From IMG/VR virus record IMGVR_UViG_3300020048_000013: a stretch of 20,000 nt of DNA, one strand, 5' to 3'. The DNA is from an uncultured virus (IMG/VR IMGVR_UViG_3300020048_000013). Lineage: Duplodnaviria > Heunggongvirae > Uroviricota > Caudoviricetes. This document shows positions 2,278 to 17,555 of the stretch, one piece after another. A program made the translations under genes and the position numbers. The notes under the pieces were generated by a model. It was given only the letters and a program-made list of their open reading frames with translations. It did no database searches and was not told the DNA's origin. Position 1 is the first letter of the stretch, and each line of letters begins with the position of its first letter.

Positions 2278-4056
2278 TTATTTTCTTATGACATCATTCC
2301 AATCATTTATCTTACCAAAAGTTGTAGTTGACCATCTATGATTTCTATTCAAACCATTTGGATCTTCGTTTGGATGATCTCCTGGACCACTACCACACAT
2401 TGGTGGCAAAGGCTCGTCGGGTCTTAAATATCTTTGGTCTTGAACAAAAGTCTTAGGCCACTTCTGTGCAGTATCACTTGGACCACTCATAATTTCCTGT
2501 TGGTTGAGAACCATTGTCGGTCCGATATTGATTAAATTCAAATTAGTTCCACCGACACCTTTGGCACTCAACTCACCAAATTTTGTTATATATGCCGTAG
2601 TAGAAAATATAAGTTTTTCATTCGGGAAGTAAATGGGCGGAACTGTTTTAACAAATTCTGCTTCTGTCATTCCTAAACAAGCTATTACAGCAAGGTGACC
2701 TTTTGGGTCATAAGTAATCATATCTTGCCAAATTTTAGTCAATAAAGCAAATGTTGGTTTCTCTAACAGTGAAGTAAATTGTGAATTTAAATAATTCTTT
2801 GTTGCTTCCATTTCATATAGATAAAAATTATCTGTTATTAAAACTTGGTCTTTTTCTGTTACTAAAGTAAAATCATTAGCAGAAACCCCTTGTAAGCTTA
2901 CTGTTCCATATTTTGCAGATACAGCTATGCCTTTATAAGCCCCTGAATAATCACCTATCTCAATAGTTTTAATAAGAGAAGATCCATTATATAATTTGGC
3001 TCTGGTTCTTGCTTGTCCACTTACAAAATAAGTTTCAATTTTTACTCCTACTGCACTACCAACAGCAAATTCCGAACCAATAAAATATGTTTTGTTCTGA
3101 GCTCCGTATTTAACAACATCTTCCCAAGTCCACACTACATTATCAAGGTTGAGTTCTTTTACATTCTTTTCATATCCGCCAAGCAATGAAGTGTTTGCTA
3201 AAGTCACTGCTTCTGCTTGATTAGAAACCTTTGCGGAATTTATACCCAATCCCAAACCATAATCATGAGTAGGGTTGAATAAATTACCATCATTTTTATA
3301 CCAAGAAGTTTGGTCTGCTGCAGATTTAATTTTTCCGTAGAATACAGGTCCTATTTTACCCGAACCAGTAATATAATCAAAATGAACTAATCCATTAAAG
3401 TAACATTGACCATATCTCGTGTCTTGTTCGTTAAATCTTCCTTTAACACCATGAAATCCTGCTCCTGCTAAGGTAGCGTTAATCAATTCGGAATTAATAA
3501 ACGGTTCGAGTTCGCCTTCGAGTAAATAATTATAAACATTCGACAAGCAAATATTAACTGATTGTCCTGTCTTATTATCCTTTGCATATGAATCTAAAAT
3601 CCAAACCGCTTGAGTAGGGAAGCCTTTTCGAGCCCCTTTGTAACGAGCATTATACAATGTATAATCTTCTGTATTCAATTCCAATATTTCGTTTTCTGTA
3701 TTTCCGAATAACAGAGTTGAAGGGTGTAAGTAAACTATATCATTTACTGCCATGTTCTCGCTTTTTGGAAACAGAGATGTGGAAAATTGTTTACTTGTTT
3801 CGTCGTAAGTTTCATTCCCCACTATATAAGGAACGTCGAATCTTTTTCTTGTGCTGTCACTTTGGTTTACCCACCATCTTACATTATAATTAGAAGCACT
3901 TTCTGCCATCCAATATAATTTCAGATTGTCGATATTAGTACTTGTTGCTCTTTGAGTATTTCCTACAAGTGCAAGAAATCCCATCGCCATAATCAATAGC
4001 ACTACGCTAATCATTATCGCCATAATCAAAGAAAAACCTTTTTGCTTTTTCTTCAT
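2278..4056 (-). CDS. PilX/GspK-like large minor pilin (prepilin-type N-terminus, DUF4900-like C-terminal region)
   Basis: Class III signal MKKKQKG|FSLIMAIMISVVLLIMAMGFLALV lacks E5, as is typical of PilX/GspK. It is followed by KLYWMAESA (PilX-N y..AEsg pattern). The C-terminus has FVQDQRYLRPDEPLPP (y.yD.R....PP pattern). Confidence 0.7.
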   Translation of the reverse strand: MKKKQKGFSLIMAIMISVVLLIMAMGFLALVGNTQRATSTNIDNLKLYWMAESASNYNVRWWVNQSDSTRKRFDVPYIVGNETYDETSKQFSTSLFPKSENMAVNDIVYLHPSTLLFGNTENEILELNTEDYTLYNARYKGARKGFPTQAVWILDSYAKDNKTGQSVNICLSNVYNYLLEGELEPFINSELINATLAGAGFHGVKGRFNEQDTRYGQCYFNGLVHFDYITGSGKIGPVFYGKIKSAADQTSWYKNDGNLFNPTHDYGLGLGINSAKVSNQAEAVTLANTSLLGGYEKNVKELNLDNVVWTWEDVVKYGAQNKTYFIGSEFAVGSAVGVKIETYFVSGQARTRAKLYNGSSLIKTIEIGDYSGAYKGIAVSAKYGTVSLQGVSANDFTLVTEKDQVLITDNFYLYEMEATKNYLNSQFTSLLEKPTFALLTKIWQDMITYDPKGHLAVIACLGMTEAEFVKTVPPIYFPNEKLIFSTTAYITKFGELSAKGVGGTNLNLINIGPTMVLNQQEIMSGPSDTAQKWPKTFVQDQRYLRPDEPLPPMCGSGPGDHPNEDPNGLNRNHRWSTTTFGKINDWNDVIRK

Positions 4057-5403: not shown

Positions 5404-5901
5404 TTACCATATTATGCCGTCTGGGTTTGTTCTGCAATAGAAGGCATTAGTTATATTCGGAATTGTTAATGTTCCACTTGGGTCAATCATAGAAATTGAT
5501 AAATCTATTTCGACCTTATGATATGCTCCTGTTATACTTGTTTTAAACGCGTCATTTATATTGTTTATTTCAAAAGCCTCTGCCCCAATTAGTAAGAAGT
5601 CATTTGAATTTCCATTAGCCGACAATCGCATTATCTTTTCGTTTTGAATAGTCCATTTAGTTATGGTTTTATCTGCATTAAGAATTGATAAGGAAGAGCC
5701 ATCAGATTCCAATTTAGCCCCGCCTTTAACATCTCTACCAATATCCATCATAAGTCTCTGAACATTTGAAGATAACATTGCTTTTCTTGTACTGTCTGAA
5801 CTAATACTGTTTGAATTAGCAATAACATTAACTATTCCCAAACCAAGAAAACCAACAATCAATGCTACGACCATAACCTCAATTAGTGTAAATCCTTTCA
5901 T
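5404..5901 (-). CDS. PilW/GspJ-like minor pilin (prepilin N-terminal cleavage/methylation motif)
   Basis: MKG|FTLIEVMVVALIVGFLGLGI, followed by the helix VQRLMMDIGRDVKGG (PilW/GspJ l..i.rDlr.a pattern). Confidence 0.75.
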   Translation of the reverse strand: MKGFTLIEVMVVALIVGFLGLGIVNVIANSNSISSDSTRKAMLSSNVQRLMMDIGRDVKGGAKLESDGSSLSILNADKTITKWTIQNEKIMRLSANGNSNDFLLIGAEAFEINNINDAFKTSITGAYHKVEIDLSISMIDPSGTLTIPNITNAFYCRTNPDGIIW

Positions 5902-6930: not shown

Positions 6931-7371
6931 TTATAAAATAAATTTAAAGTTGACATTTGATTTTATATGACTAAAAAGAAATTTTCCGTCATTCTGTAGA
7001 GGAATTTCTAACGTAAAAACATACTTAGGAATATCTTCTTTACTCTTTACTGTCAAATTAGTAATCATGACTTTTATAAACTGTGCTTCGCAATAAGGAA
7101 CATTTTCCGATTCTATTTCAGAAAACATGACACTTGTGTTTATCGTTGTCTGATCACCAAAATCTACACTTAAAAATGGCATTGGTTGAATATTTAATAA
7201 TGTAGATGCTATTGCAGAATTAAATTCTGTTAAAGAATCATAATCAATATCATCAGATTCTAATTTAACTTTATAAATTTCGAATCTTTCTTTTTCTCCA
7301 CTACCATTAGTTTCTATTTTAGCACCAGCAGATACCGATGTTATTTTTCCTGTAAACATTTTATTAAACAT
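6931..7371 (-). CDS. Hypothetical protein
   Basis: 146-aa ORF overlapping the upstream gene by 8 nt. Confidence 0.65.
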   Translation of the reverse strand: MFNKMFTGKITSVSAGAKIETNGSGEKERFEIYKVKLESDDIDYDSLTEFNSAIASTLLNIQPMPFLSVDFGDQTTINTSVMFSEIESENVPYCEAQFIKVMITNLTVKSKEDIPKYVFTLEIPLQNDGKFLFSHIKSNVNFKFIL

Positions 7372-8472
7372 TATATTTCTCCAATTCTTCTTTACTGTTT
7401 TTTACTTTAAGATAAGATGATGCATTAGTAATACTATCCAACACTTCCATTTCTTTTTTAAATGGATTTAATATAATAGTCGGCATTATTCCAGACGAAT
7501 CATTGAATCCCAGTTGTCTTGTATATGGATCAGCGACCTTATAACTAGAAGGTCTAATTGCAACTCTTCTCTTGCCTTTCCAATTAAATAATTCCCAGGC
7601 ATCTTCATGATTATGAGCAACAATTACAATATCAGAATCATAAACACCATTTCTCAACAATTGTTTTGCACAATTTGTTAAATTTATGTTACTTTGATGT
7701 GAATATTTGTGTCTCATATAAAGCTCATAAGATACTCCAGAAGGAAATTCGAAAGTTATGAGATATTGATGACTACAATAATGCACTTTATTATCCTTCA
7801 CCAAATTTCCAACAATATCTATTCCAGAAACTTGTTTAGATCTCAAATCATGATTTCCGCCAACAACAGCAAGAATTTTTTCTGCCGTCATTGTATTAAT
7901 CCAATGAGTTAATAATGCAGTTTGTTCTTTTGGACTTGTCGTNNNNNNNNNNTCGTAGCATTAATAACTGCTTCCTGCATCTTAGAATTGATAAAATTAT
8001 CTATCAAATCTCCAGCATGAATTACTCCCAAATAATCGCTATTTCTGATAGCTTCAGCATCAATTCTCATTTTTTCATAATCACAACCTTCTCCGCCGAT
8101 ATGAGAATCTGATAGAACTACGATTCCAAAAAACTCATCGTATGGTAATTTCACAACAAGCTTATCATCTTTTTTCCAATCATCGATATATAATTTAGAT
8201 CGATATTCCATCTGTCTCCAAAATTCTTCTCTTTCTTCTTCTAAAACTTCGTCGGGTTTAATATTGTCTATAAAAGTAATAGGCAATCTTTTTGACTGAT
8301 TATTAATTCTCACATTATGTGACAATTTATTATCTTTTATACAACATCTGACTGATTCGGCAGTCGTTCCCAATTCCCTTGCTATTTTTTCATATTGTCC
8401 GTTTAATCCTAGGACCAATGGATTTTCTTTCAAATAATTCATCAATCTAATTTTCAAATCACCTTTTGCCAT
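7364..8472 (-). CDS. N-terminal HTH plus calcineurin-like metallophosphoesterase (one gene, split by the scaffold gap at 7943-7952)
   Basis: HTH-like YEKIARELGTTAESVRCCIK; phosphoesterase motifs SDSHIG, GDLID, GGNHD, RH and AHNH. TCGT is duplicated on both sides of the N-run, and collapsing it gives the in-frame junction INATTSPKEQTALLTHWINTMTAEK. Confidence 0.75.
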
Positions 8473-8554: not shown

Positions 8555-9824
8555 TTATTTACTCAACTTTTCCGTAATTCCAAGAAGCATGTTGATGCCA
8601 ATTGCATCCATAACACTGTTACTTCCGCCTTTACCATCTCCGCCACCCATAACAATAGTAGGAACTTTAACTTTTGCTAACTCTGCAGCCACACCAACTT
8701 TGGTCTTATAATCCCATTCTGCTCTTTCTTGTGGAGNNNNNNNNNNATCTACTTGCTTCGGAATCAGCTTGTCCTCTGAAAATTGTAGCTTTCTTTTCTT
8801 CTTCTGCTTGTTTAGCTTGTAACTGAGCAACTTTATATTCCTGTTCAGCTTTTATAACTCCAACTTCATATACTTTCTGAGCATCAGTAACTTCTTTAAC
8901 TTTTTCAACCTCTCTTGTATATTTTGCAGTAGCCACATTCGCTTTACCTTGTTCTTCTGCTGTGATAGCATCCTGTTTAGCTCTTAATGCTGACTGTTTT
9001 GCAAGTTCTGTTTTCATTGCTTCATTCTTTCTTGCTGCAATTTGTTTTTTAACTTCATCATCAAAATCAGGTATATCAATTACACATTCCGCAACTTCAC
9101 AACCAAGTTCCTGTAATCTTGTCGGAACTCTTTTTGCTGTTCCATCTTCATTATATACAATAACAGTAACACTCTGTTCTACCATTTCGCCTGTTGCTAT
9201 ATTTTCAACTTTAACAACTTCTTTCTTAGTTACATAAATACCATTTCTTAATTGGTCATCAACTGATTGCTGAAATAATGCGACATTTGTATAAGCATCC
9301 TGTGCTGTTCTTAAATTGGCGGATAGTTTAATAGCATTGTTTACAATAGGAACTACACCACTTCTAATAAAATGCTCATAACCACCTTCATAATCTCTTT
9401 TTAAAACCAAACATCCTTCAGTAGTTGTGGGCAATTTAACCCTAACAAGACCCGATATTTTAGCAATAGAACCATCATTAAATATAACATCTACTGGAAC
9501 CGCGCCTTCACCAACATCAGCAATATCACCAGCACCGAATCTCAAAGTAGCCACATTTCTATAAGTATCAATAGTACCAAATCCTTGAATATACAATCCT
9601 GGATTGTGTCTCACAGACATAGTTCCCGACCAAGCCGCCTGTTTAATCTGAAAATGCCCCGCTTTATTAGTTTCCCATATTTTACCCGAAAATATTACTA
9701 ACATTATCAGTCCTATAGCAACAACACCCATAAGAACAGATTTTTTGATTGATAGTTTCGACCAATCGAATTTATTATATTTGTTAACTGTGTCGTCTGA
9801 TTCTTCTTCTCTATTGAATCCCAT
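8555..9824 (-). CDS. SPFH / band-7 / prohibitin-domain membrane protein (one gene, split by the scaffold gap at 8737-8746)
   Basis: N-terminal TM, SPFH core (PVDVIFNDGSIAKISGLVRVKLP), Ala/Glu/Lys coiled coil. The C-terminus PQERAEWDYKTKVGVAAELAKVKVPTIVMGGG resumes after the gap. Confidence 0.8.
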
Positions 9825-10838: not shown

Positions 10839-12260
10839 TTATTGTAATCTTTCTGTAATGACATCATACATTTTATCGTTAAGAGCATTCATCATGATAC
10901 TTACTGGTGTAAATTCTTCTGCTCCTTTCAATATCGATTTTAATGTTGATGCATCGCCACCGCTAACTAATGCTACATCTTTAGTGGTTGAGTTTACAGG
11001 AACATTTCCGATTCTTCCGTTAACATTCCAAAAAACTACTTTAGGAACTTTATATCCAGCATTTTGATAATCCATTTTGAATTTATCATATGCTGTTAAA
11101 GTACAGTGACCATCAAATTCCATATCGGAGATTATTAACAGCATTGTTGGCATATCACTTTCTGATATGTTATTTTCGACGGCTTTTGTTAACACCATTC
11201 TGAAAACAGCATCCAAATCTGTGTTATTGCTAATGAAACCAACACTTCTTAGTTGACGAAATCTTTCTGTCACACTTCCCTGTATATATTGCATTTTTGG
11301 CTTTCCTGAGAATGTCACAAATGCATCTTTAAAAATCGATTTGTTTCTTTCTGATATATAAACCCCAAGAGATACTGACATCGCCATTGGCAAACCGTCG
11401 TTGGAATTCATACTATCACTAACATCACAGATAGGAAGTATTCTTTCGTTAGAATCAGTCATATAATCAGGCAAACAAGACCATTGTGCGTCTATGGAAT
11501 TAGTATCTGCTCCTCTCATAAAGCTTCTATATATATCATAAGGAAATATATCTTTAGCTTTTATCATTTTTATACCTTGTTTAACTGCAGTTTTTGCAAT
11601 TTCGATAAAAGACTTAAATCTTCCTTCGTCGTTTCTATACCACGCAGTACGATATTTATTAAAAGCTACTCCTGGTATTTGGCTATAATTGATATCAGAC
11701 CATTTTTTTGCACACATTAATTGTTCTACTGTTTTAGAACCGTCTGCAATAATTTTTCTATATTTAGATGCGCTCATGCCAGTGTAGTTAAGAAACTTTA
11801 ATCTGAAACCATTATATGTTTTGTTGGTTCTAGGCAACCATTTACACAAAAGTCCATTACTCATGTTGCGTGATACCAAATTATAAACTTGTGGTGTTTG
11901 GATGTGAAACAAACTATCCCATCTATTAAATTCTGGAACTAGGTCAAAAAGCTTATAAAACACTTCTTGGTCTTTGTTGTGTATCCAATTTAAAGCTATA
12001 CGGAAAAATCTTCTTTCTCCTTTTCCGCCTCTAATATTTCCACCATGAAAAATTGCTTTGAGTGTCAGTAAACTATCTTCTACCCAAGATCTTTCAATCA
12101 TAGCTTCTATATCAGAAACCGACATTGTTCTAGATGCACCAAGAATAAAATAAAGGTCTAAAACACCATTCAACGAAGTCGAATTTGTAAGACCGCCATT
12201 AGCTGTTAATGCGTCTTTTTGTCTTGCTACATTTACTAATACTGATTTGCTTTGTGCCAT
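10839..12260 (-). CDS. DUF2828-type protein (Ro60/TROVE-related helical domain plus vWA domain)
   Basis: Motifs TANGGLTNSTS...LDLYF, RGGKGERRFFR, LLCKWLPR, VEQLMCAKKWSDINYSQIP, MIDAS-like CDVSDSM, NTDLDAVF, IISDMEFD and GYKVPKVVFWNV. Confidence 0.8.
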   Translation of the reverse strand: MAQSKSVLVNVARQKDALTANGGLTNSTSLNGVLDLYFILGASRTMSVSDIEAMIERSWVEDSLLTLKAIFHGGNIRGGKGERRFFRIALNWIHNKDQEVFYKLFDLVPEFNRWDSLFHIQTPQVYNLVSRNMSNGLLCKWLPRTNKTYNGFRLKFLNYTGMSASKYRKIIADGSKTVEQLMCAKKWSDINYSQIPGVAFNKYRTAWYRNDEGRFKSFIEIAKTAVKQGIKMIKAKDIFPYDIYRSFMRGADTNSIDAQWSCLPDYMTDSNERILPICDVSDSMNSNDGLPMAMSVSLGVYISERNKSIFKDAFVTFSGKPKMQYIQGSVTERFRQLRSVGFISNNTDLDAVFRMVLTKAVENNISESDMPTMLLIISDMEFDGHCTLTAYDKFKMDYQNAGYKVPKVVFWNVNGRIGNVPVNSTTKDVALVSGGDASTLKSILKGAEEFTPVSIMMNALNDKMYDVITERLQ

Positions 12261-12285
12261 GATTTTCTCCTTTTTTTAATTTTTC

Positions 12286-12337
12286 AGTCTGCTATTTTTT
12301 CCATAAAAGGGAATTTTATTTTTGCTGTAAGCAGACT
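12286..12337 (-). ncRNA. Candidate small structured RNA / 5' leader with a tRNA-Lys(UUU)-like anticodon loop
   Basis: An 8-bp stem AGUCUGCU/AGCAGACU encloses UACAGCAAAAAUAAAA-UUCC-CUUUUAU-GGAA-AAAAU. Confidence 0.6.
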
Positions 12338-12345
12338 ATCTTTTG

Positions 12346-12463
12346 TTCGGGGAGACGGACTCGAACCGCCGACCTACTCCTTATAATGGAATTTTGTTTT
12401 TGCTGTGTGTATTCATTCTCTAAATACATTTTTTAGTTACTCTACCAACTGAGCTATCCCCGA
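12346..12463 (-). tRNA. tRNA-like RNA (anticodon UAU, Ile-type) with a 45-nt insertion in or before the 5' anticodon strand; no encoded CCA
   Basis: Acceptor UCGGGGA/UCCCCGA, U8A9, D arm GCUC-AGUUGGUA-GAGU, anticodon loop AUUAUAA, variable loop AGGUC, T arm GGCGG-UUCGAGU-CCGUC, discriminator A. Confidence 0.8.
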
Positions 12464-12493
12464 ATTTATGTCATATTTGAAAGAACAGGTTGT

Positions 12494-12522
12494 AATATAC
12501 ACTAATTAAAATCAAATGTCAA
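12494..12522 (-). promoter_or_regulatory. sigma70-type promoter for the tRNA-like RNA / Ro-like unit
   Basis: TTGACA (12522-12517), 17 nt, TATATT (12499-12494). Confidence 0.75.
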
Positions 12523-12525
12523 GTA

Positions 12526-13182
12526 TTATTTTAAAAATAATTCAGGATTGTGTACATCTATTTTATATTTTACTACTAAATGAGTTAAAGTTTCTGATTC
12601 AGATAGGTTCATAATTTCAAATTCCACATTTCTAAAAAATTTCTCAAAATCTGTGTATAAATTCAAATTTGGAATTTTTGTCAGATTGATAACATATGAT
12701 ATATTACCATGATTACGATAATCCATTTTGAAATTACCATCAGAATTTTCGCATAAAGCTTTTGCTTTTTCTCTCAACTCTTTAATTTTCGAATTTAGTT
12801 CTGGTATCCCGAATTTATTATCGAATTCTGCTCTTTCTTTTTCAATTGATATTTTTTCTGCTTCCGCTTTTTTTATTTTTGATTTTCTGAACAAAATATC
12901 ATCATTCATATACTCTCCAGAACTATATTTTATAGTCAAGTCGGATAGTAATTCACTATTTTTACATTCTCTATGTTCCAAACTACGGACTGTTTCTATA
13001 TTATTTCTTCTGATTTCATAGAGTTTATTATCTAATCCACCAATATCATAGCTAATGCTATTAAATTCCGTAATAAAATCTTTATGAAGTTCTTCAAAAT
13101 CTTTAATCAATTTTTGATATACGAAATTGAAGTTTTTTTGCAATTCTTTTTTACATTTTTCTAATATTGTATATTTTTCCAT
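12526..13182 (-). CDS. Hypothetical coiled-coil protein
   Basis: 218 aa, K/E-rich helices, AAGGAGA RBS. Confidence 0.7.
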   Translation of the reverse strand: MEKYTILEKCKKELQKNFNFVYQKLIKDFEELHKDFITEFNSISYDIGGLDNKLYEIRRNNIETVRSLEHRECKNSELLSDLTIKYSSGEYMNDDILFRKSKIKKAEAEKISIEKERAEFDNKFGIPELNSKIKELREKAKALCENSDGNFKMDYRNHGNISYVINLTKIPNLNLYTDFEKFFRNVEFEIMNLSESETLTHLVVKYKIDVHNPELFLK

Positions 13183-16433: not shown

Positions 16434-16559
16434 TTATAAATCTACAAACAATAAAATTAATAATATCAACAACACTCTCGGATCTCCTGTAAAATATACA
16501 GCAAATCCCACCAGAGCAAAAAATCCTAAATATATTAACGCTCTTCCTAAATATTTCAT
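16434..16559 (-). CDS. Small membrane protein (not in the ORF track)
   Basis: MKYLGRALIYLGFFALVGFAVYFTGDPRVLLILLILLFVDL*, with ATGA overlap. Confidence 0.55.
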   Translation of the reverse strand: MKYLGRALIYLGFFALVGFAVYFTGDPRVLLILLILLFVDL

Positions 16560-16918
16560 TTTATCACATGCTCCCTTTTGTTTAATTCATCTTTAACCAA
16601 TTTCATTAACTCCACGAAGAATAGGTCATCTACTGAATGATAATCATAATCCGACTCTGAATTACATCTGAAATATGAACCTCTTTTGGCTTTGTAAAAA
16701 GTCAATAATCGTTTGGTGTTCAGCTTTTGATAACCATGTTCAAACTGTTGTTTTGCTCTATTTTCAGCTTCTATAACAGATTTCAAATATGATTTTTCCT
16801 CAACCAAATCCTTTTTTAACTGCTCAATCATTTTATTGAGGTTTTTTTGTGCATCTAACAAATCTTTTAATTCTTTGGTCTTTCTTGCTATTGTTAATTG
16901 TGTATTCTCTTTATCCAT
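16556..16918 (-). CDS. Hypothetical coiled-coil protein
   Basis: Start re-assigned to MDKENTQ (GGAGAGA RBS). Confidence 0.6.
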   Translation of the reverse strand: MDKENTQLTIARKTKELKDLLDAQKNLNKMIEQLKKDLVEEKSYLKSVIEAENRAKQQFEHGYQKLNTKRLLTFYKAKRGSYFRCNSESDYDYHSVDDLFFVELMKLVKDELNKREHVIK

Positions 16919-16928
16919 TTTTCTCTCC

Positions 16929-17555
16929 TTATAATACCATTTTTTCGATTTCTTCACGAACTCTTTCGGCAATTGTATTAACATATGCGCAAGTGAACAT
17001 TGTTCTTACTGCTTTCAAATCTTTTTTAGCAGGAGCAAATCCTTTACCAATAAAACGATAAAATCTAAAAATGCGCAAATAATCTTCCTGAATTCTATCC
17101 TCTGCTTTCCCTACAAATCTTAGAGTTTTTGTTTTAATATCATCTAACCCTTTTCCTGTCGGATCAACAAATTCCCCATTATCAAGTTTATAATAGATAG
17201 CGTTGATAGTAAAATCCCTTCTCTGAGCATCTTCAAAAATTGTTCCCACAGATACCGAATCGGGTCTCCTGCCATCAGAAGTTTTGGCATCGGATCTAAA
17301 ATTAGCAATTTCATATTGAACTCCATCTTTTGCAATATTCAATACCAGGAAGTTTTCTCCTGTTCTACTCACAGCCCATCCTGCTGTTGTAAATATCTCA
17401 TCAAGTTTATCATAGGGAATATCAGTAACGAAATCATAATCTTTCGGTATTTTACCAATTAGACTATCTCTAACACAACCACCAACAAGATAACTCTCTG
17501 TCGAATATGTAGTAAGTATCATTCTTATTTGTAGTAATTGTTGTTCTAGTTTCAT
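16929..17555 (-). CDS. Short class II tRNA nucleotidyltransferase (CCA-adding enzyme / poly(A) polymerase head and neck)
   Basis: YLVGGCVRD, DYDF, EIANFRSD...GRRP, DAQRRDFTINA, RFVG, and the templating motif EDYLRIFR. Confidence 0.85.
   Translation of the reverse strand: MKLEQQLLQIRMILTTYSTESYLVGGCVRDSLIGKIPKDYDFVTDIPYDKLDEIFTTAGWAVSRTGENFLVLNIAKDGVQYEIANFRSDAKTSDGRRPDSVSVGTIFEDAQRRDFTINAIYYKLDNGEFVDPTGKGLDDIKTKTLRFVGKAEDRIQEDYLRIFRFYRFIGKGFAPAKKDLKAVRTMFTCAYVNTIAERVREEIEKMVL

Follow-up and report, generated by a model that had tools for sequence, protein, structure and literature searches.

The stretch analysed here, 20 000 nt from an uncultured Caudoviricetes virus (IMG/VR record IMGVR_UViG_3300020048_000013; hereafter the window), encodes a 118 nt tRNA whose anticodon stem is interrupted by 45 nt. 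This RNA is most likely neither an ordinary tRNA nor a broken one, but the tRNA-shaped partner of a Ro60-like protein encoded on the same strand. The reading that we favour, with a probability of roughly 0.6, is that of a Y-RNA-like chimera, in which a whole tRNA of normal topology carries a recognition module for the Ro60-like protein. A preliminary description, made from the sequence alone, had left a choice between a hybrid of Y RNA and tRNA and a non-canonical intron. The first is now favoured by a neighbouring gene with a Ro60 fold, by the same module beside homologous genes and by the co-occurrence of the two in 44 of 50 viral records, and the second is weakened. The window RNA belongs to a large family that standard annotation has passed over.

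The interrupted tRNA and its family

The interrupted tRNA occupies positions 12346..12463 of the window. The preliminary description had these coordinates right and the strand wrong: the gene lies on the minus strand, with its 5′ end at 12463 and its 3′ end at 12346. All tRNA arms are intact, as first described. The Rfam tRNA model (RF00005) aligns end to end (model positions 1–71) at 45.5 bits, the gathering score being 29 (E 5.6e-7, whole window), skipping 56 nt inside the anticodon arm in the cmscan alignment, and the acceptor, D and T stems are fully paired (7/7, 4/4 and 5/5). The 5′ part (12435..12463, minus strand), read from the sequence and corresponding to columns 1–28 of the covariation alignment A3 described below, comprises the 5′ strand of the 7 bp acceptor stem UCGGGGA/UCCCCGA, a D arm GCUC/GAGU with the D loop AGUUGGUA, A26 and anticodon-stem positions 27–29 (ACU). 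The inner anticodon stem-loop (12376..12389, minus strand), delimited by sequence and by covariation helices 3 and 5, consists of CC, the loop AUUAUAA and GGAGU; the loop contains A32, U33, the anticodon UAU (12385..12383) and A37. The remaining 3′ part (12346..12375, minus strand), assigned from the Rfam match, the sequence and covariation, holds the variable loop AGGUC, a T arm GGCGG/CCGUC with the loop UUCGAGU, the acceptor 3′ strand and a discriminator A. The A at position 32 and the lack of an encoded CCA at the 3′ end had both been remarked on before.

The 45 nt insert (12390..12434, minus strand), whose boundaries are again read from the sequence, lies within the anticodon stem between position 29 (the end of ACU) and position 30 (the start of CC), where the preliminary description had put it, and its removal yields a perfect ACUCC/GGAGU stem. 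It consists of an A6 linker, a hairpin, CA, the motif CAGCAA and an A-rich linker. The hairpin (12408..12428, minus strand) had been seen as 7 bp; RNAfold adds one A–U pair to give the 8 bp stem UGUAUUUA/UGAAUACA with a loop of 5 nt, and it constitutes helix 4 of the covariation analysis. CAGCAA (12400..12405, minus strand), an anchor of our search pattern and invariant in A3, is single-stranded and follows the hairpin by 2 nt. The shared motif ACAGCAA noted earlier recurs at 12328..12322, within a small stem-closed RNA.

RNAfold predicts the cloverleaf together with the 8 bp insert hairpin for the whole 118 nt RNA (minimum free energy −32.3 kcal/mol, z −3.52), and the insert folded alone reaches z −5.42; none of 200 shuffles equalled the native RNA in either case. 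The local unspliced pairing AUUCC/GGAGU, proposed at the outset, is also present in the RNAfold structure. The gene scores above threshold as a tRNA, and it departs from one in that the contiguous 5 bp anticodon stem with a 7 nt loop is split by 45 nt. ARAGORN called no tRNA anywhere in the 20 kb window, so that the expectation that standard finders may miss the gene held for ARAGORN and failed for the Rfam model.

A nucleotide search of phage records gave a single match, a 118 nt homologue in the tRNA array of the 735 kb phage LR756501. Its insert is of equal length, its anticodon is UCU, and only the bridged register of its anticodon stem pairs (ACG+GC with GCCGU); in the unspliced form, the local AACGC fails to pair. 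LR756501 carries another interrupted tRNA, in which the same cassette (ACG, break, GC..GCCGU) is combined with a CAU loop and a different D arm, and the module is thus not tied to one tRNA body. Relatives were collected on viral contigs with the pattern GGTAGAG..CAGCAA..GGTTCRA (D arm, CAGCAA, T loop), which matched at least 119 times in at least 115 contigs; a first pattern, CACAGCAAAA..GGTTCRA, had given mostly chance matches, with real relatives at about 10 of 120 loci as judged by eye. Of 120 matches to the pattern in bacterial genome assemblies, 32 were genuine, mostly on contigs of Lachnospiraceae metagenome bins. As our own RNA model, R1, gives ordinary tRNAs 25–55 bits, interrupted tRNAs were counted only at about 98 bits or more, a 62.3-bit copy in LR756501 being accepted after its sequence had been read; the 109.6 bits of the window tRNA follow by construction, the window being in the R1 seed.

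The matches listed, together with the window and the loci L001 and L133, comprise 101 distinct sequences, and it is among these listed matches that the family counts given here were made. Other tRNAs carrying the same insert, the search for which had been proposed in the preliminary description, are plentiful: 80 of the 101 are tRNA-like, with at least 6/7 acceptor and at least 4/5 T-stem pairs, and 77 of these 80 also have at least 4/5 anticodon-stem pairs. Within the 77, the break falls after 3 stem nucleotides in 38 sequences and after 2 in 24, mostly at 28/29 or 29/30, and in 8 the module takes the place of the entire anticodon loop. The insert hairpin is 7–9 bp long, reaches at least 6 bp in 75 % of the 77 sequences against 12.6 % of shuffles, and is free in sequence (56 distinct stems), with CAGCAA following it after 1–3 nt.

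Covariation was assessed in alignment A3, in which 28 diverse members were aligned with MAFFT and not fitted to the structure. Paired cells amounted to 94.2 %, against 63.4 % in shuffles (0/500 of which reached the native value) and 37–43 % with slid partners, and there were 240 double-change cells against 71. The insert hairpin (helix 4) changes on both sides in 8/8 pairs; helices 3 and 5 are 98.2 % and 100 % paired, respectively, and every one of their pairs changes on both sides. The scored outer pairs (27–28 with 42–43) and inner pairs (30–31 with 39–40) all covary, and because both halves of the stem are still maintained in this way the RNA is best described as a three-way junction of tRNA body, short anticodon stem-loop and insert. 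Since homologous interrupted tRNAs are widespread and covarying, the feature in the window is more than a product of chance.

The same data largely refute the notion of a functionless tRNA pseudogene hit by a random or mobile insertion, of the kind made by miniature inverted-repeat transposable elements, and we give it almost no credence. The missing ARAGORN call would suit a pseudogene, and the presence of one cassette in bodies with different D arms in the LR756501 genome could suggest movement. Decayed arms in the relatives, the sign that the preliminary description had associated with a pseudogene, are not what was found: acceptor and T stems are intact in the 80 of 101 sequences, compensatory variation is strong in every helix, the insert included, and the linkage to one protein family, set out below, is tight and strand-specific.

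Viral contigs hold further unusual tRNAs. At L044:964-1085 (minus strand), a 122 nt tRNA (RF00005, 55.1 bits) has an anticodon-arm insert of about 49 nt without CAGCAA; this is a different kind of interrupted phage tRNA, and its contig also carries CAGCAA units. The second match in L239 (oriented 3109-3227) is an interrupted tRNA with the loop CUUUAAA and the anticodon UUA, which would read the ochre stop codon. LR756501.1 (690585-690738 and 204243-204333) carries two tRNAs with the anticodon CUA, called ‘Pyl’ by ARAGORN, and one with an 8 nt anticodon loop, ‘TTAC’, which hints at stop-codon or frameshift suppression.

The Ro60-like protein and the free-standing units

Downstream of the interrupted tRNA, a gene at 10839..12260 (minus strand), with the ribosome-binding site AAGGAG immediately 5′ of it, encodes a protein of 473 aa that matches DUF2828 (PF11443, 6.3e-26) and the vWA-like DUF7788 (PF25043, 1.2e-41). 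In PHROGs, the protein matches phrog_850, ‘RNA-binding protein’ (2.1e-109). When an AlphaFold2 model built from 40 homologues (pLDDT 90.2) was compared with the Protein Data Bank by Foldseek, the best 12 matches were all Ro60/TROVE proteins (512–584 columns, E 2.3e-7 to 4.2e-5, TM 0.47–0.61), and these included frog, human and Deinococcus Ro60 and the Ro60 of Thermus phage phiLo, at 11–14 % identity. The predicted structure thus shows the Ro60 ring and vWA fold, yet in Pfam the protein matches DUF2828 and DUF7788 and not TROVE. Residues D279, S281, S283, T347 and D379 are invariant across the 40 homologues, and we take them to form a metal ion-dependent adhesion site.

The protein was present in 700 of 50 697 phage records. 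The Protein Atlas gave viral DUF2828 clusters only and therefore offers no view of eukaryotic members; no longer, fused homologues were found, which we count as weak evidence. A locus search with the single protein returned only 5 loci, at 37–38 % identity, and the motif was absent from the roughly 600 nt just upstream of the gene in those 5. A survey of gene neighbours is considered below.

Linkage between the interrupted tRNA and the gene is evident in two counts. A DUF2828 homologue is encoded in 44 of the 50 viral records with an interrupted tRNA, including 15/15 of the records that are at least 90 % complete; the six without it are 7–68 % complete. Within flanks of up to 3 kb, the DUF2828 gene was found beside 39 of 56 interrupted tRNAs, on the same strand in all 39 and downstream of the tRNA in 33.

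Between the two in the window lies a second RNA. A free-standing stem+CUUACAGCAA RNA of 52 nt (12285..12337, minus strand), identified by a match to the Dictyostelium Class I model (RF01414, 32.5 bits) and by RNAfold, begins 8 nt downstream of the tRNA and ends 24 nt ahead of the DUF2828 start codon. It has an 8 bp terminal stem, CUUACAGCAA after the 5′ strand, the hairpin CC-CUUUUAU-GG, an A-run and a CUG end, and it folds with z −3.39.

Arrays of such units occur upstream or downstream of DUF2828 homologues in viral contigs, in the form stem, 1–3 nt, CAGCAA, variable part, second stem strand and G(U/A). When units were strictly defined by a stem of 7 bp or more and a length of at most 90 nt, 85 DUF2828 loci yielded 112 units on the gene strand versus 12 on the opposite strand, with at least one unit in 55 loci. 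A long-span regular-expression scanner gave 142 matches versus 53 in shuffles and 35 on the wrong strand, and because its false positives are so many the evidence is confined to the short units and their strand asymmetry. Units adjoin the DUF2828 gene in Escherichia coli phage EC6, where three CAGCAA units follow the gene, in Mycobacterium phage Rumpelstiltskin, where the protein carries the annotation ‘Ro-like RNA binding protein’, in Listeria phage LP-048 and in Bacillus phage Tsamsa. EC6, Rumpelstiltskin and Tsamsa each have one unit built around a permuted tRNA mimic, which runs from T arm through a closed acceptor-like stem to D arm.

The insert in the window is the closed-hairpin form of these open-ended stem+CAGCAA small RNAs flanking DUF2828/vWA genes, and the window RNA as a whole is the architecture of the permuted mimics opened at the acceptor and closed at the protein-binding helix. 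Look-alikes of an anticodon stem-loop (7 nt loop, U at position 2, purine at position 6) were found in 13 of 94 variable regions of free units where 0.8 would be expected, which in free-standing units fits display rather than decoding.

Some of these loci have features of their own. At L121:100-450, there are three consecutive CAGCAA-type units, the third of which is a permuted tRNA mimic with a CUA (amber) loop and CCA encoded in the acceptor linker. LP-048 (L325:1421-1972) has a match to ROOL RNA (90 bits against a gathering score of 99.1) 1 kb upstream of the DUF2828 gene, and a match to freshwater-1 RNA (74.3 bits against 72) lies in the tRNA array of another viral contig (L173:1916-1977).

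The position of both elements invites a regulatory reading, in which the two CAGCAA elements would be mainly cis operators in the leader of the DUF2828 mRNA, serving autoregulation, and the tRNA body would supply processing sites or stability. The small unit is indeed only 24 nt from the start codon, with no terminator-like site found between the two; 33 of the 39 interrupted tRNAs linked to the gene are located upstream of it, on its strand, and a CUGCAAAAACAAAAC stretch stands just 5′ of the DUF2828 start codon of LR756501. EC6, Rumpelstiltskin and many viral loci, however, also have units downstream of the gene, where 6 of the 39 interrupted tRNAs lie too; those of LR756501 are about 135 kb away from it, and an operator would not need full, covarying tRNA arms. 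As the main function this seems to us quite improbable, and an operator role could coexist with the chimera.

Decoding, splicing or a retained module

The chimera reading implies a sequence of steps. A sigma-70-like site (TTGACA, 17 nt, TATATT; 12494..12522, minus strand), about 30 nt upstream of the tRNA 5′ end, agrees with the consensus at 11/12 positions and is the best of 7 sites in 11900-12900 (shuffle mean 5.0); on the strength of this consensus match it is a putative promoter, which would drive the two RNAs (the tRNA chimera and the small Class I-like one) and the protein gene together. The ends of the tRNA would be trimmed by RNase P and RNase Z, and its 3′ end finished by a CCA-adding enzyme, maybe that of the phage itself: an open reading frame (ORF) of 208 aa located 4.5 kb away (16929..17555, minus strand) matches the head domain of CCA-adding tRNA nucleotidyltransferases (PF01743, 9.8e-32; phrog_2244, 4.9e-47), and may be linked to an RNA without an encoded CCA. 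The hairpin+CAGCAA module would then be bound by the Ro60-like protein, by analogy with the binding of a Y-RNA stem by Ro60, and the tRNA body with its displayed anticodon loop would form the effector module. Host factors that recognise tRNAs, such as anticodon nucleases and other enzymes of tRNA-directed defence or repair, may be recruited to the protein by such an effector, or may meet it as a decoy.

Several members of the family argue against decoding. The L214 lineage has a Ser-type GCU loop on a body with a 5 nt variable loop, and an ordinary tRNA(GCU) lies nearby; bacterial tRNA-Ser requires a long variable arm. Both interrupted tRNAs of LR756501 (UCU and CAU) are duplicated by ordinary tRNAs of equal anticodon, 16 of 57 canonical loops in the family repeat an ordinary tRNA in the flanks (about 10 of the 16 from one lineage), and an anticodon loop is missing altogether from 8 of 77 members. 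A tRNA-Ile(UAU) that decodes with its extra arm in place, the appendage modulating only stability, modification or recognition, would be consistent with the presence of all arms, U33, A37 and the discriminator A, and with the unspliced AUUCC/GGAGU stem that can form in the window RNA. However, this local stem is not conserved and fails in L001, some members have no anticodon loop to decode with, and an arm of 45 nt emerging halfway along the anticodon stem would be expected to clash with the A site of the ribosome. We therefore hold retention with decoding to be very improbable.

The intron reading is also unlikely, and deserves fuller discussion. It proposes a new, protein-dependent tRNA intron at 29/30 that is excised, after which the exons are joined, by RtcB for instance, into a functional tRNA-Ile(UAU); the Ro60-like protein would be a splicing or chaperone factor, and the free CAGCAA RNAs related substrates or regulators. 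The exon halves always restore the stem, perfectly so in the window, and the LR756501 homologue pairs in the ‘spliced’ register only. Among the members with a loop, 57 of 67 have canonical loops with varied anticodons, and interrupted genes sit in tRNA arrays. In LP-048, an RtcB-like gene annotated ‘tRNA-splicing ligase’ adjoins the DUF2828 gene, and in LR756501.1 (L002:3100-4140, minus-strand reading) the translation of a gene two ORFs upstream of DUF2828 appears RtcB-like by eye, with an HGAGR-type motif.

These observations are countered at several points. A retained three-way junction explains the covariation equally well, and the module is kept in stand-alone small RNAs, where splicing could give no tRNA. 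The members without an anticodon loop, the body that has a Ser-type anticodon but no long variable arm and the ordinary tRNAs of equal anticodons in the same genome all speak against decoding, and thereby against any need to splice.

The insert also fits neither established class of tRNA intron. In bacteria, tRNA introns belong to group I; they are large, with a catalytic core of hundreds of nucleotides, and sit in the anticodon loop. Archaeal and eukaryal tRNA introns, including those at non-canonical positions, have a bulge-helix-bulge; tRNA-Ile(UAU) itself is rare. The likeness consists in extra sequence within the anticodon arm of an otherwise intact tRNA gene, whose exon halves rebuild a 5 bp stem. 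In contrast to those introns, the insert lies in the stem and not the loop, and its hairpin and CAGCAA also exist outside tRNAs. At 45 nt and with a single hairpin, it is far below group I size, and no Rfam intron family matched it. The A-run and AAAAUU form no 4 bp helix flanked by bulges, so that there is no bulge-helix-bulge, and no endonuclease family was found among the 36 ORFs scanned in the window, which represents 20 kb of the genome. On this evidence, to which the look-alike loops in free units add a point that fits display, we place a retained module for binding the Ro60-like protein ahead of an intron.

A number of points weigh against the chimera itself. Among the 80 best DUF2828 loci, L133 alone has a full interrupted tRNA within 3 kb; the protein evidently does not need the interrupted form, which is a minority variant. 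The co-occurrence counts include related contigs (98 distinct sequences among the at least 119 matches, with about 10 from one lineage) and hence overstate the number of independent events. Since the D-arm type, CAGCAA and the T loop were all prescribed by our pattern, the conservation of their letters is by construction; CAGCAA recurs independently upstream of DUF2828 genes. The 57 of 67 loops that keep 7 nt, U33 and a purine at 37, with diverse and sensible anticodons, are what an intron-bearing functional tRNA gene would show too. The neighbours of the DUF2828 gene are heterogeneous, with no constant effector or partner among 148 ORFs from 38 loci: RNase HII occurred in 7 loci, and Band_7, HAD_SAK_2, cREC_REC, HAD_PNKP, PolyA_pol and others in single cases. 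Finally, the 7 sequencing runs listed for the window are all DNA metagenomes, retention of the insert in a mature, non-decoding molecule is something that we infer, and the suggested decoy or tether role is drawn from analogy.

Known relatives, genomic setting and wider meaning

The closest parallel to the chimera is provided by bacterial Y RNAs. According to the available sections of Chen et al. (2014, PMC4201824), YrlA Y RNAs mimic tRNAs and have their genes by that of Ro60, the YrlA of Mycobacterium smegmatis is cleaved by RNase P and has CCA added to it, and the Ro-binding motif of YrlA is GNCGAAN0-1G. In the available text of two further papers, phage phiLo encodes Ro60 with two Yrl RNAs (Yrl1/2) that have a CGAA motif (PMC12135203), and a survey of jumbo phages describes ROT/TROVE proteins with a tRNA-like partner (PMC7824862). 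As far as these sections go, the phage RNAs studied here share with YrlA their place beside the gene of a Ro60-fold protein, often several in a row, their combination of a protein-binding helix bearing a conserved single-stranded motif by one strand with a tRNA-like domain (D and T arms, acceptor), and the site at the anticodon stem from which the module leaves that domain. The permuted mimics of EC6, Rumpelstiltskin and Tsamsa have the YrlA layout itself.

The differences are equally clear. The phage protein belongs to DUF2828+DUF7788 instead of Pfam TROVE and has 11–14 % identity to solved Ro60s, and, against the motif given in the sections cited, the phage RNAs have CAGCAA instead of GNCGAAN0-1G or CGAA. 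The topology in the window is inverted, with an open acceptor, a loop-closed binding helix and a real 7 nt anticodon loop. Compared with a Y RNA, the window RNA therefore has the tRNA-like effector domain, as a full tRNA body, and in place of a Ro-binding stem formed by the 5′ and 3′ ends it has a closed internal hairpin with CAGCAA. The phages in Table S2 of Chen et al. (Bacillus phage G, CcrColossus and Bxz1-like mycobacteriophages with a 552 aa Ro) are not the DUF2828 phages. At gathering thresholds, tRNA and tmRNA were the only Rfam families recognised across the window and 15 related loci.

A functional clue comes from coliphage Bas63. In the accessible portion of the PhageMaP preprint (10.1101/2024.10.10.617714), its Ro60-like protein gp130 counters the Ppl defence, the gp130 gene lies directly upstream of a tRNA cluster and the authors guess that some of the ‘tRNAs’ are Y RNAs; that portion names no RNA partner. 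The Felixounavirus EC6 has its DUF2828 gene in the corresponding position, followed by CAGCAA units, which in contrast to the window RNA are open and permuted and not an interrupted normal tRNA. Presumably, gp130 is a DUF2828 protein and Bas63 a Felixounavirus.

Circularly permuted tRNA genes, as in the red alga Cyanidioschyzon, and two-piece or permuted tmRNAs are processed to a decoding tRNA or tmRNA. The genes at L014, L049 and L121 resemble them in having the 3′ half of the tRNA first and an acceptor closed by a linker, which sometimes encodes CCA. They differ in that the flanks form the CAGCAA stem, and nothing shows circularization.

The small unit of the window leads to a more distant comparison, with the Class I RNAs of Dictyostelium. 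Class I hallmarks are a terminal stem, a CCUUACAGCAA-type motif and a CUG(U) end (Kjellin et al. 2021, PMC7919456; PMC5054030), and the published Fragrep pattern is GTTGRCCTTACAGCAA ... GTCAACTG (PMC5054030). The small unit spans the full RF01414 model (positions 1–56) and shows the terminal stem (8 bp), the 11 nt motif after the 5′ strand and the CUG end, its CUUACAGCAA matching the last 10 positions of that motif exactly. At 32.5 bits it falls short of the gathering score, 41.5 (E 1.1e-4 to 2.3e-4 on short stretches), and instead of the Dictyostelium upstream sequence element about 60 nt upstream in a dictyostelid host it has a phage context and a sigma-70-like promoter. Phage units and Class I RNAs are alike in a length of about 50–60 nt, an end-joining stem, a motif ending in CAGCAA, a variable middle and an A-rich 3′ part, whereas all phage matches to RF01414 stay below the gathering score (27.4–36.1 bits vs 41.5). 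At E≤1, matches were obtained in 5 of the 17 DUF2828 loci searched (4 of the first 9 and 1 of 8 further chosen loci), and none in EC6, Rumpelstiltskin, LP-048 or Tsamsa. Kjellin et al. (2021, PMC7919456) detected no Class I RNA beyond the Dictyostelia, the known Class I binder is the RNA-recognition-motif protein CIBP/Rnp1A, and of four proteins pulled down with a Class I RNA, DDB_G0281243, named in just one preprint among the literature searched, is uncharacterized. The resemblance could be convergent.

The remainder of the window looks like phage accessory DNA, with 26–35 % G+C, almost all larger ORFs on one strand and products that include a cell-wall hydrolase, an SPFH protein, a 5′-nucleotidase and the CCA-adding head domain. 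Downstream of the DUF2828 gene and in the same orientation, an SPFH/Band_7 gene (8706..9824, minus strand; PF01145, 1.1e-6) is of uncertain membership in the unit; the other DUF2828 locus in which an interrupted tRNA occurs, L133, likewise has a Band_7 gene after that for DUF2828. The 3′ end of the SPFH/Band_7 ORF contains a short run of N at about 8735-8775, a masked stretch or assembly gap that two overlapping translations render as XXXX. The CCA-enzyme ORF holds the head domain alone, and the overlapping ORF 16556-16984 (minus strand, 142 aa) has no family match; the enzyme could be split or of a minimal form. ORFs 7364-7891 and 7909-8472 (minus strand) match the C-terminal (profile positions 106-260) and N-terminal (19-96) parts, respectively, of phrog_7339, ‘DNA repair exonuclease’, and appear from these matches to be a split or frameshifted metallophosphoesterase gene. 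ORF 5404-5901 (minus strand, 165 aa) has a prokaryotic N-terminal methylation (pilin-like) motif (PF07963, E 7.5e-5), which is unusual for a phage accessory region.

In relation to Ro60 and Y RNAs as a kind, the system described here is novel: its protein family and RNA motif are distinct, and its topology has no described counterpart among Y RNAs. We found no printed description of these phage RNAs in a literature search that left most subscription journals and bioRxiv supplements outside its reach. A broader interpretation, which is speculative and which we rate as doubtful, is that helix+CAGCAA RNAs are the cross-kingdom partners of a Ro60 paralogue (DUF2828/vWA), with the Dictyostelium Class I RNAs as the eukaryotic branch and the Class I pull-down protein DDB_G0281243 as a candidate Ro60-paralogue partner. 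Phages would have grafted the module onto bare anticodon stem-loops, permuted tRNA mimics and whole tRNAs, and the resulting anticodon-displaying ribonucleoproteins would bait or neutralize tRNA-directed defences.

Because a conserved module splits their anticodon stem, many phage ‘tRNA’ genes of this type are invisible to standard finders. If the chimera reading is true, it would supply an RNA partner for the Ro60-like family of Felix O1-like coliphages, Listeria and Staphylococcus phages and mycobacteriophages, one likely member of which is described as an anti-defence factor in the portion of the preprint cited above. One ribonucleoprotein design in three circular permutations would amount to a natural experiment on the use of tRNA shapes by Ro60-type proteins, and the displayed anticodon loops would offer a testable link to anticodon-nuclease defences. 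Lastly, the common stem+CUUACAGCAA signature would open the function of the Dictyostelium Class I RNAs to direct test.

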